Below are positions 835 to 4,049 of a stretch of DNA of 32,000 bases, one piece after another. The notes under the pieces were generated by a model. The model made no database searches, was not told the DNA's origin, and saw only the letters and a program-made list of their open reading frames with translations. Each line of letters starts with the position of its first letter. Within the stretch, counting starts at the first letter, position 1. The DNA is taken from positions 1,116,629-1,148,628 of the forward strand of contig NC_000909.1 of the NCBI RefSeq assembly GCF_000091665.1. Direction: 5' to 3'. Origin of the DNA: Methanocaldococcus jannaschii DSM 2661 (GTDB lineage Archaea; AGJL01; Methanococci; Methanococcales; Methanocaldococcaceae). The position numbers were made by a program, and so were the translations under genes.

Positions 835-1839
835 ATGAGATTTGAGGAATTCAAATACGTTAGGAAAGGAGTTATTGTTGGATTGTTAATAATGTTGTTA
901 TATATAATTTGGCCGTTTATTGATGTCTTAGCTTATTCATGTGCCTTTGCATATATGGCTTTGCCAGTCTATAACATATTAAGAAAAAAATTTAATAAAA
1001 CCATATCAGCAGGTTTGGCAATTAGCATATATATCCTTCCAATTATGACAATTACAATTTACGCCCTACTAACGTTCATGGAAATCATACTATCTTTCAA
1101 TACTAAATCTATAGAGCCATATATTAATGAAATCCTCTCCATATATAATTCTTTTATGTTAGAAAGAATTATTAATAATGAACAAATAATTGCAAAGTAT
1201 ATTGACGAATTTATAAAATATTTGGTTAGTCAGTTTTCTGGAAAGATTATTGATGTTGGATATTTAATAGTTAAAGTAATTATGGTTTTGTTCTTAACAT
1301 TCTACTTTCTAAGAGATGGGGATAAAGCCAAAAACCTGATAATTTCATTTGTGCCTGATGAATATAAAGAAAAGATGAGAATTTATTTAAGTTATCTTCA
1401 TGACTCCTACAAAAATTTATTTATAAGCTGTGTTTCACTTTCTATAATTATAACTATCCTATCCTACATCGGATATCTTATACTTGGGGTTCCTTATGCA
1501 GAGTTATTTGCGATAATAACCGGAATATTTGCTTTATTACCAATATTGGGAGGATGGATGGTGTATATCTCAATAGCTATATATTTCTTTTTAATACATG
1601 ACTATACTAAGGCAGTTTTTATGTTTATTTATGGGGAACTCTTCCTTTCCATAGCTCCAGATTTTGTTATAAGACCTTATTTAGTTAAAAAAGAAGTAGA
1701 TATTCACCCAGTCCTTGTAGTTATTGCGTTTTTAATGGCGCCCCTTTCATTAGGACTCAGTGGATTTGCTATTGGTCCATTAGTCGTTGGGGCTTTAAAC
1801 GCCTTTTATTTGGCAAAATATAGGGATAAAAAAATCTAA
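835..1839 (+). CDS. AI-2E family transporter / PerM-like permease (UPF0118), multi-pass membrane protein
   Basis: 334-aa ORF with about 7-8 hydrophobic segments. The C-terminal region (GIFALLPILGGWMVYISIAIYFF ... DFVIRPYLV) resembles the conserved AI-2E/UPF0118 core. Confidence 0.7.
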   Translation: MRFEEFKYVRKGVIVGLLIMLLYIIWPFIDVLAYSCAFAYMALPVYNILRKKFNKTISAGLAISIYILPIMTITIYALLTFMEIILSFNTKSIEPYINEILSIYNSFMLERIINNEQIIAKYIDEFIKYLVSQFSGKIIDVGYLIVKVIMVLFLTFYFLRDGDKAKNLIISFVPDEYKEKMRIYLSYLHDSYKNLFISCVSLSIIITILSYIGYLILGVPYAELFAIITGIFALLPILGGWMVYISIAIYFFLIHDYTKAVFMFIYGELFLSIAPDFVIRPYLVKKEVDIHPVLVVIAFLMAPLSLGLSGFAIGPLVVGALNAFYLAKYRDKKI

Positions 1840-1849
1840 GAGGATAATT

Positions 1850-1891
1850 ATGAAAAAAGTAAGAGTAGTAACTGCCGGAACATTCGACATC
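1850..1891 (+). pseudogene. Displaced 5' fragment of a ribL homologue (14 codons, [14 protein letters not shown]), then interrupted
   Basis: The first 14 codons match the start of the intact ribL at 2208 ([13 protein letters not shown]). After codon 14 the frame enters a GC-rich hairpin and stops at TGA 1916-1918. It has its own SD-like GAGGA upstream. Confidence 0.7.
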
Positions 1892-2041
1892 CATAGGGGG
1901 AAACCCCTATTGGGATGAACCTTTTAGTAAAAGCTTCACCAAAACCTAACATCTCCTCGCTTACGCTCGGAGGTGTAAATTAGTAAGATTTGGGGAGTAT
2001 CCCAATAGAGGGGCGAAGCCCCTCTATGGTGTGGATACCCC
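1888..2041. repeat. GC-rich structured insert bounded by two related hairpins (MITE-like element or small structured RNA)
   Basis: Hairpin 1 (1888-1917): CATCC-ATAGGGG-GAAA-CCCCTAT-(TG)-GGATG. Hairpin 2 (1993-2041): GGG(A)GTATCC..AATAGAGGGGC-GAA-GCCCCTCTAT..GGATACCCC. Both share the core ATAG(A)GGGG/CCCC(TC)TAT. An imperfect third hairpin, CCTCG..CGGAGG, lies at about 1955-1973. The island is strongly GC-enriched relative to its flanks. Confidence 0.5.
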
Positions 2042-2054
2042 ATGTCCATTAGCT

Positions 2055-2143
2055 AATTATCAAAGTTAAATCATCTATTAAGGAATATTTAGAAGCCCAA
2101 AAGGCTTCTATAAGTGCCATATTAATTTAAAACTTTGATAATT
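2055..2143. repeat. Long-range inverted repeat (13-nt perfect arms) enclosing a GC hairpin, upstream of ribL
   Basis: AATTATCAAAGTT (2055-2067) is the exact reverse complement of AACTTTGATAATT (2131-2143). The central hairpin is AGAAGCC-CAAAA-GGCTTCT (2091-2109). A further hairpin, TTGCCCTT-TTC-AAGGGCAA, lies at 2153-2171. Confidence 0.6.
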
Positions 2144-2207
2144 GGTTATAAGTTGCCCTTTTCAAGGGCAATTAATGTCCTATTAAAAAGAAATGGTGTG
2201 AATAGTT

Positions 2208-2657
2208 ATGAAAAAGAGGGTAGTTACCGCTGGAACGTTTGATATTCTTCACCCTGGACATTATGAGATATTAAAATTTGCTAAAAGTTTAGGAGATGAG
2301 CTAATAGTTATTGTTGCGAGGGATGAAACTGTAAAGAAATTAAAAGGTAGAAAACCTATAATTCCGGAAGAACAAAGGAGGGAGATGGTTGAAGCATTAA
2401 AGCCTGTTGATAAAGCAATATTGGGAAGTTTGAAAAATAAATTAGAGCCAATATTAGAGTTAAAACCAGATATTATTGTTCTTGGTCCTGACCAGACAAC
2501 TTTTGATGAGGAAACACTAAAAAAAGAACTTGCTAAATATAATTTATATCCAGAGATTGTTAGATTTAGAGGTTATAAAAAATGTCCATTTCACAGCTCT
2601 TTTGATATTGTAAAAGAGATAATTAGGAGATTCTGCAATAAAGAGATTAAAATCTAA
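2208..2657 (+). CDS. ribL: FAD synthetase RibL (archaeal FMN adenylyltransferase, cytidylyltransferase-fold)
   Basis: 149-aa ORF. The N-terminus [14 protein letters not shown] is the nucleotidyltransferase (H/T)xGH motif. Length and sequence fit the archaeal RibL family as I remember it. SD-like GGTGTGA lies upstream. Confidence 0.85.
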
Positions 2658-2795
2658 TGCTTTTTTATTAAAATTTTTATAATTTATTTTCTTATCCTAT
2701 TATTATTTTCTTATAAGATAAATTATCTATAAAAAAATAAAAAATTTTATATATTGCATAGTCAAAATTTTCTTATGTTCATACTTATGTTCATA

Positions 2796-2897
2796 TAGTC
2801 AATCATCAAAATAAAAATTGTTCAACAAAGGGTATTTAAAACCCCTTTGGGGTTTTATTTGTTCCAATTTAATTAGTGAAGTTTTGATGATTGACTA
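2796..2897. repeat. 102-nt palindromic element: 16-nt perfect inverted-repeat arms plus central GC hairpin, ending just before the RBS of the next gene
   Basis: TAGTCAATCATCAAAA (2796-2811) is the exact reverse complement of TTTTGATGATTGACTA (2882-2897). The central hairpin is AAAACCCC-TTT-GGGGTTTT (2838-2856), extended by AACAAA/TTTGTT. It is preceded by the tandem repeat CTTATGTTCATA x2 (2772-2795). Confidence 0.65.
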
Positions 2898-2913
2898 ATT
2901 TTGAGGTGGTATT

Positions 2914-4049
2914 ATGAAAAAGATTTATATGTTGGTGGCTTTGCTAATCTCATCTTTGGTACTATTTGCTGGATGTGTTCAAAATGAAACTTCAGAAGTT
3001 CCAACTTTGACAGTTGCATATTTGCCAACAGACCATCATGCTTCCCTATTTGTAGCCTGTGACAATCCAGATTTATTTAAAGATAAATATGGAATATGCT
3101 TGAAAGCAGTTAAAGATAAAGAGGAATATGAGTTGTATAAAGGAAATAAAAAAATAGCTAATGTGAAAGTTGTTAAAGTTACTGAAGGTGGAGCAAGTAT
3201 AATGAACCTAATGACTCAGGGACAGGTTGATGTTGCTTTATTAGGATACCCACCAGTAATATTCTACATAGATAAGGGAACAAAGGCTAAGGTCATAATG
3301 AATTTGCATACCGAAGTTCTGCAGTTGTTGTTAGAAAGGATATTCCAGTAAATAACTGGAAAGAGTTTGTTAATTGGATAAAAGAACAACATAAAGAAGG
3401 AAAGCAGGTTAAAATAGGACATCCACTACCAACATCAATTCAATACGTTATGATAGAAGATGCTTTAAAAGCAGAAGGGATAACCTATACTGAAGACCCT
3501 AATAACAAGAGTGCTATGGTTTTGTTAGTAAATTGTAAGGGACAGGGGACAATGCCTCAAATGTTAGCTCAAAAGCAGTTGGATGCAGTTATTGCATGGG
3601 AGCCAATGCCTGAAATTATAAAAAATAAGGGTATTGGAAAAGTTATTGCCCACAGTGAAGATTTACCAAGCGCTACAGGAGGAACTTGGGCAAACCATCC
3701 ATGCTGTTGTTTAGCAGCGTCTGAAAATGCCTTAAAAAACAAAAGAGAAGCAGTTATAACATTTGCAAAACTCTTAAAGGATGCGACAGATGAAATTAAC
3801 AAAAACAGAGATTTAGCTGTTAAAGCATCTGTTAGATGGCTTGGAACAAACGAAAATGTTGAGAAAGATTCAATTGAGCATATAAAGTTTGATTATAGAT
3901 TAGAACCAGTAATACCTAAAGTCATAAAATTCGTTGAAGCAATGAAGCTCCAAGGATTAATAAATGGAAAGCTAAAAGATGCATCATCAGAAGAAGTCAA
4001 GGACATAATCTTTGACCTGCAAACTTACAATGAGATAATAAATAACTAA
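2914..4049 (+). pseudogene. Lipoprotein-type periplasmic solute-binding protein (NMT1/THI5-like, nitrate/sulfonate/bicarbonate SBP family) split by a 1-nt frameshift
   Basis: ORF 2914-3351 has a signal peptide plus lipobox (LVLFAGC) and an SBP-like N-domain. The next frame is open from 3291 and continues without a gap as ..[51 protein letters not shown] into ORF 3450-4049. One missing base near 3313-3317 (accgaag^ttctgca) would restore a single ~378-aa protein. Confidence 0.7.

Follow-up and report, generated by a model that had tools for sequence, protein, structure and literature searches.

The start of ribL is present twice in Methanocaldococcus jannaschii, once on each side of a 317-nt insert built of nested hairpin repeats. 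We consider it probable that this layout goes back to an old insertion with a long target duplication, and that recombination with empty alleles afterwards replaced the flanks, so that the insert and the live start now differ in ancestry from their surroundings. An essential gene survives here an insertion amid its catalytic motif, as the insertion brings a duplicate of the gene start with it. The features concerned are listed below, with positions given in the window, that is, the whole stretch of 32,000 nt that was analysed.

835 to 1839, forward strand: AI-2E family transporter (permease), 334 aa, stop codon TAA at 1837-1839; PF01594 is found on the identical gene in assembly L133.
1840 to 1890, forward strand: displaced (upstream) copy of the ribL start, with the SD GAGG at 1840-1843, ATG at 1850 and 13 further codons, ending in GACAT.
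1850 to 1918, forward strand: residual ORF of 22 codons, running from the displaced start into the first hairpin, with the stop TGA.
1891 to 2207, forward strand: insert of nested hairpin-repeat modules, 317 nt, GC-rich, multicopy and by description of the MJRE kind.
1891 to 2029, forward strand: first module, 139 nt in the insert, with inverted hairpin ends (CCATAG..CTATTGG and CCAATAG..CTATGG) and two internal hairpins (inverted repeat I4, hairpin I8).
2044 to 2180, forward strand: second module, a hairpin (GTCCATTA..AATTAATGTCC) enlarged by a palindromic block within it at about 2052-2150 (inverted repeats I1-I3).
2181 to 2207, forward strand: AT-rich tail, 27 nt, in which GGTG (2195-2198) is the likely SD, nine bases before the live ATG.
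2198 to 2245, forward strand: live (downstream) copy of the ribL start, ending in GATAT, with the rare synonymous codons AGG and ACC.
2208 to 2657, forward strand: ribL, FAD synthetase (FMN adenylyltransferase), 149 aa, PF01467; cluster members are named 'FAD synthase'.

The interrupted gene has what is expected of a RibL, namely the cytidylyltransferase-like domain PF01467, the GTFD..HxGH motif and the name 'FAD synthase' in its 90% cluster. The insertion point follows ribL codon 14 and falls within the nucleotidyltransferase motif, with GTFDI before it and LHPGH after it. The downstream copy, which is joined to the rest of ribL, is the working start, and the upstream copy is cut off from the gene.

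Positions 1850-1890 are a second copy of the ribL start at 2208-2245. When the two are aligned without the fourth codon of the upstream copy (GTA), 8 of 38 bases differ (aligned positions 9, 12, 18, 21, 24, 30, 33 and 36), all of them at codon position 3 and all synonymous. A preliminary description of this DNA had claimed a second ribL start with synonymous differences only. This holds for the eight third-position changes and fails for the extra GTA, an in-frame valine codon and hence a non-silent difference. A ninth difference that it had counted (ATC/ATT) has to be withdrawn, since the C at 1891 is not a substitution but the base that opens the terminal hairpin of the insert (CCATAGGGGG..CCCCTATTGG), the sequence from 1891 onward being CCATAGGGGGAAACCCCTATTGG. 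The breakpoint does lie exactly at the base of this GC-rich hairpin, as had been said, and the displaced copy does possess an SD of its own, the GAGG at 1840-1843 standing 6 nt 5' of its ATG. A local alignment of the copies scores 21, compared with a maximum of 16 over 3000 random window positions; a chance similarity of the two ribL starts is excluded. Since the likeness extends 10 nt 5' of both ATGs (GAGGATAATT versus GTGAATAGTT, 7 of 10), the repeat measures about 51 nt upstream and about 48 nt downstream once the ribosome-binding region is included.

The insert that separates the copies is predicted to fold as a single strand at -59.7 kcal/mol (z = -8.1 versus shuffles), with five or six strong hairpins. 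Its first module, which measures 141 nt (window 1889-2029) when matched across the genome, has arms of 13 nt with 92% complementarity (I4) and recurs at C1:460306-460446 (98% identity) and at C1:101674-101844 (88%). Copies of the second module are found at C1:726181-726331 (87%), 1248692-1248788 (93%), 143576-143667 and 453151-453243. The junction GATAT|CCATAGG is also present in the related genome G011, and further copies of the module likewise begin with CCATAG. The 317-nt insert as a whole is without terminal inverted repeats, one of its ends being the locus-specific tail. There is no long ORF in the insert and no integrase or recombinase in it or adjoining it, the neighbours being the permease and ribL. 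No Rfam family was found in window 1500-3000, where a single miRNA match stays at chance level (E = 0.17, 22 bits against a gathering score of 74).

The tail bears on a further proposal of the preliminary description, that an element had carried in a substitute gene start. The insert together with the live start looks like a cassette with a substitute start, but the duplication seems to include the live ATG with its SD region, as the last 10 nt of the tail (2198-2207) match the SD region of the displaced copy at 7 of 10 positions. We also asked whether the element brings its own start, and no other copy of the 27-nt tail exists in the genome. Reading the tail as a decayed permease stop with its SD region was rejected, the resemblance not being significant versus shuffles (p = 0.08 to 0.96).

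The direct repeats at ribL are not an isolated case. The preliminary description had proposed a search for the insert elsewhere in the genome, and this search was rewarding: window 1840-2260 has 73 partial or full matches in its own genome, and when the whole genome, CRISPR arrays excepted, was searched for direct repeats spaced 50-700 nt apart, hairpin inserts of 75-280 nt between direct repeats of 24-60 nt were found at no fewer than 27 other loci. Examples on C1 are 459181, 904075, 364850, 69126, 172061, 658731, 1446246 and 1636967, together with the tRNA ends at 97164, 402876 and 619003. Three of the flanking repeats are perfect (30, 33 and 35 nt), and several cover an SD with its ATG or the 3' end of a tRNA. 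The loci also share a polarity, in which the CCATAG end of the hairpin abuts one repeat copy and the other end is separated from its copy by 10-27 nt of locus-specific sequence; ribL conforms to it. Long flanking duplications are therefore typical of this hairpin-repeat family in the M. jannaschii genome and, as at least 27 loci have the same layout, the one at ribL is a case of the family footprint.

A parallel is C1:460260-460494 (L002), where a 98% identical 141-nt module sits in another gene start between repeats of 46 nt. These 46 nt comprise the final ten codons of the upstream gene together with an SD, an ATG and five codons. Six relatives have this site empty, and 4 of the 5 mismatches between the copies are silent in the frame of the upstream gene. 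Pooled over the family, 34 of 63 repeat mismatches in ORFs (54%) fall on third positions, where in-place decay expects about 50%, in a count whose automatic frames include some non-coding repeat ends. Therefore, a signature of recombination consisting of silent differences only is not universal in the repeat family.

The relatives bear on the age of the insertion at ribL. RibL is present in all 17 genomes of the family; among the 16 others it has 71-97% identity in 15, and G010 gives a weak match only. The preliminary description had asked for the orthologous permease-ribL spacers to be compared, and they fall into at least ten empty alleles (in G001, G004, G005, G006, G008, G009, G012, G013 and G014 and in the metagenomic L061 and L064) and a single filled one, in G011, with which the insertion allele is shared. 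In the empty alleles nothing separates the permease stop from the SD and ATG of an uninterrupted ribL. It is the displaced copy of M. jannaschii that occupies this ancestral place, directly 3' of the permease stop, and its SD-ATG layout is that of the uninterrupted L061, save for one 3-nt insertion. G011 has the M. jannaschii junction (TTTGATAT|CCATAGGG), short forms of both modules (of the first, just the first hairpin, in alignment A1), a tail that aligns, and a perfect duplication of 35 nt. A metagenome scan for further filled alleles returned G011's own contig, the uninterrupted L061, L064 and L065, and truncated contigs only.

Because the tail is locus-specific, the filled alleles of M. 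jannaschii and G011 are most simply explained by one old insertion. Indeed, M. jannaschii and G011 have come to differ in modules and tail, from which we infer that the insertion is old, and the M. jannaschii insert appears to have gained two nested blocks since, relative to G011. In another genome, G002, a different set of hairpin modules lies between the permease stop and the ribL SD (L035 1290-1500), with another junction and no long duplicate of the ribL start visible in the spacer. Since G002 carries different hairpin modules there, the permease-ribL spacer seems to be a repeated landing place.

If the insertion is old, the displaced copy is strangely well preserved. We polarised the differences with about 18 other alleles and found at least 3 derived silent states in the live copy (AGG, ACC and ACG), against 2 in the 41-nt displaced copy (TTC and GAC), both private. 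Thus, derived changes are no fewer in the live copy than in the displaced one, though confined to a quarter of the free sites. This balance is the opposite of that of a long-dead relic, in which changes would be expected to outnumber those of the live copy several-fold, and the displaced copy appears to have lost its function only recently. Similarly, the displaced copy of G011 is an intact start of the local, G012-like type (class MEKKKR), and over 35 nt it is identical to the live copy. Both filled genomes thus combine an insert that is old with a displaced start that looks young.

Along both ribL and the permease the nearest relative changes from one short tract to the next, as in a mosaic, from which it follows that recombination between alleles is common here; the permease is nearest to G006 throughout (84-92%). 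The body of the displaced copy is nearest to G001 and G006, from which it is 3-4 differences away, two of these being private. Compared with G006, the closest relative of the flanks, the live copy has 6 changes in 27 nt, but the 42 nt that follow have only 1. Its AGG and ACC are otherwise found only in the metagenomic contig L063 (OFBY01002458.1), which stops at ribL codon 3. This contig differs from its sister contigs L061 and L064 at 21 positions in the first 150 nt and at none in the rest, and the divergent stretch extends past the repeat, which suggests that its 5' tract is recombinant and that the assembly may, in addition, have broken at a repeat. Among the alleles sampled, no empty allele has the exact sequence of the displaced copy.

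The preliminary description had gone further and seen in the two copies the products of separate lineages, joined at a seam of homologous replacement or horizontal transfer, and had recommended matching each copy to lineages separately. We retain from this that the displaced copy behaves like a start that worked until recently and that the insert with the live start appears to have a separate history. The lineage matching gave the AGG and ACC shared with L063 and a Fisher p of 0.054 for a switch of affinity at the repeat boundary, with 0.13 and 0.6 for the whole-gene contrasts. For two copies of some 40 nt, this points in the expected direction and is weak and suggestive.

We can now outline how the locus may have formed. 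A hairpin element would have entered the ribL start with a target duplication of about 50 nt that comprised the SD region, the ATG and 13 codons. Our best guess for the origin of this duplication is template switching during repair or replication at a hairpin; a fixed-stagger transposase is disfavoured because the repeat lengths vary from 24 to 60 nt. Later, filled and empty alleles of different lineages would have recombined, with homology ending at the insert. The single start of the empty allele could pair with either repeat copy, so that the insert and one copy would be looped out and kept, and both flanks could be overwritten up to the edges of the heterology. The outcome would be a displaced copy and a stretch from codon 15 onward of one ancestry, around an insert and live start of another. 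We propose that the differences between the copies are silent because the displaced copy was a working start in another lineage. Counted against this reading are the weak affinity tests on short copies, the divergence of L063 beyond the repeat, the pooled share of third positions, the extra GTA codon and the two private changes of the displaced copy, and the lack of an exactly matching empty allele among those sampled. Formally, overwriting of the flanks equals an import of the insert and live start into an empty allele, or the integration of a circle by one crossover.

The latter leads to the strongest rival, in which the insert and the live start form a small mobile cassette that is excised as a circle between the repeats and re-enters empty ribL alleles in other cells or genome copies, each time with a replacement start that lets the essential gene survive, either by a single crossover in about 50 nt of homology or by a hairpin-specific enzyme. 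The same junction and tail are found in two distant backgrounds, and the ancestry switch seems to fall at the repeat boundaries, as such a cassette would have it. Moreover, a crossover near the 3' end of the homology fits the pattern within the copies, the displaced one being resident-type up to ACA and then carrying the private TTC GAC, and the live one being foreign-type up to ACG and resident afterwards. However, no recombinase lies in or next to the insert, the RNA-library contigs contain no circle or excision junction, and in G011 the bodies of both repeats are resident-type, for which a single crossover would need a second event. On the present data the outcome is the same as that of ordinary allelic recombination, and we regard a circulating cassette of this kind as unlikely. 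It is tempting to speculate more broadly, on a conjecture that we rate only slightly higher, that a hairpin cluster with one copy of a gene start is an enzyme-less, self-propagating cassette, which relies on the homologous recombination of its hosts and on its own copy of the target's end to reach one and the same essential gene in further lineages and does it no harm, and that the long and variable duplications of the family arise by an undescribed mechanism, precise at the CCATAG end and imprecise at the other.

A plainer history would have the insertion with its long duplication take place in the M. jannaschii line and the copies diverge in situ, the silent-only pattern being due to luck or to changes in the live copy only. 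Long flanking repeats are, after all, the footprint of the family, the repeat in G011 is perfect, and the pooled third-position share of 54% is what decay in place would give. We simulated such decay by Monte Carlo, with the upstream copy free to change, the live copy restricted to silent changes and both at equal mutation rates: all 8 differences fell on third positions with p = 1.6e-4, and the upstream translation remained unchanged with p = 2e-5. The former still stands at about 0.005 when some 30 loci to choose from are allowed for, and the earlier contention that neutral decay is inadequate is borne out by both values. In-place divergence also has to reconcile an insert that is old, being shared and having a diverged tail and modules, with a displaced copy of at most 2 private substitutions, and to explain derived changes that are at least as numerous in the live copy on its quarter of the free sites. 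It is accordingly less probable still than the circulating cassette.

Could the displaced copy instead be kept by selection and still be in use, for example as a translated upstream ORF that controls ribL, or as an alternative start? Its SD and ATG are kept and the peptide sequence is preserved, and the RNA-library contigs run from the permease into the displaced copy and the insert. The displaced start, with its SD kept, would give a peptide of 22 residues. Yet this ORF stops inside the hairpin and is not conserved, since its G011 counterpart, read by eye, ends elsewhere and spans the whole insert; the copy is absent from most relatives, and conservation is limited to the part homologous to RibL. 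Retained use is thus very improbable. An artefact of the 1996 genome record, for which at least one likely frameshift error nearby (about 3315) could be invoked, has practically no standing, as the assemblies L133, L139 and L142, from independent projects, are base-identical across 1275-2706 and the related genome G011 has the same layout. Exact-protein look-ups returned M. jannaschii itself at every occurrence.

In the contigs from RNA libraries, the end of the permease is continuous with the displaced copy and the first module (1500-1933), as is the insert with all of ribL (2000-2637 and 2103-2727). They are compatible with a long structured leader, but may also stem from DNA carry-over. No transcription start was called within the insert; the raw-read run yielded 2 reads, and the other runs consist of contigs without ends.

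Several known systems can be set beside the ribL insert. Elements such as e14 in icd of Escherichia coli and the archaeal tRNA-targeting integrative elements enter the end of a gene and carry a replacement end. As in these, two copies of a gene end bracket the ribL insert, the gene-side copy restores the duplicated gene end and is functional, and it has silent differences from the displaced copy, both having evolved as working sequence. In contrast to them, the insert has no integrase or recombinase gene, consists of 317 nt of non-coding hairpins and targets a 5' end that includes the SD and the ATG, and the repeat length varies across its family. An integrated element with a replacement gene end may nevertheless serve as the closest working analogy. 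When group I introns and inteins home, recombinational repair copies them from filled alleles into empty ones, and flanking exon sequence is co-converted. The likeness to ribL is in an insertion that would spread by recombination with the flanking markers of the donor travelling along; the difference is that the ribL insert has neither an endonuclease gene nor splicing and is tolerated through its duplication.

MITE-, REP- and Correia-type elements are known to leave short fixed target duplications (2-10 bp) or none. A classical MITE is recognized by such a short fixed target-site duplication, whereas the one at ribL is about 50 nt and those at the at least 27 other loci measure 24-60 nt. The likeness lies in the small hairpin or inverted-repeat form and in the position at gene ends. 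Bacterial and archaeal MITEs, REP/BIME, Correia and Rickettsia palindromic elements are all small and non-autonomous, have a hairpin or inverted-repeat structure, and often lie at the ends of genes, sometimes within them (PMC2229807). Integration of the Cas1 type (repeat-length duplications) or of the casposon type (14-15 bp) was also considered, and dropped in view of repeats of 24 to 60 nt.

Nearest by description are MJRE1-3, the palindromic repetitive elements of M. jannaschii reported by Suyama, Lathe and Bork (FEBS Lett 2005, 579:5281, as cited in PMC2229807 and PMC2996958). The likeness, as far as these citing papers describe the elements, is in multicopy, GC-rich palindromic modules of the same genome, some of which sit in protein genes without destroying them. 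By their dispersed copies and hairpin form, the modules of the insert belong with the MJRE repeats, an assignment made by description and not by consensus sequence. The published intragenic MJRE cases are, as cited in the same two papers, in-frame insertions that are read through. In ribL, unlike these cited cases, there is no read-through of the insert; a duplicate of the start lies behind it, from which the gene begins anew. The literature search, which the 2005 MJRE paper itself lay outside, gave no account of long flanking duplications or of an ancestry mosaic. Within the literature so covered, the hairpin repeats themselves have been described since 2005, and what appears new at ribL is the long target duplication and the proposed ancestry mosaic.

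Long and variable target duplications are unlike those of known small prokaryotic transposable elements and point to an undescribed insertion route in hyperthermophilic archaea. Moreover, an old insertion of this kind would act as a fixed recombination boundary whose two sides are of different ancestry, and could serve as a natural marker for gene exchange among Methanocaldococcus lineages. There is also a warning for annotation, as orphan mini-ORFs that resemble the starts of neighbouring genes are footprints and not genes.

Some further observations were made in and near the insert. Over the central hairpin of the 141-nt module (1923-2016), the word depth of the contigs is 50 to 1000 times that of the flanks in three RNA libraries, with short contigs at very high depth, this being a depth summed over all genomic copies; a stable small RNA may derive from this hairpin. 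Downstream of ribL, the arms of an inverted repeat (GTCAATCATCAAAA .. TTTTGATGATTGAC) at 2790-2900 lie on either side of a small hairpin just 5' of the next gene, again with high RNA-library depth. Finally, other assemblies of the strain have one NMT1_2-type gene of 378-379 aa where this record has the ORFs at 2914-3351 (145 aa) and 3450-4049 (199 aa). At about 3315, L133 contains an additional G; the record described here therefore carries a frameshift, probably a sequencing error.
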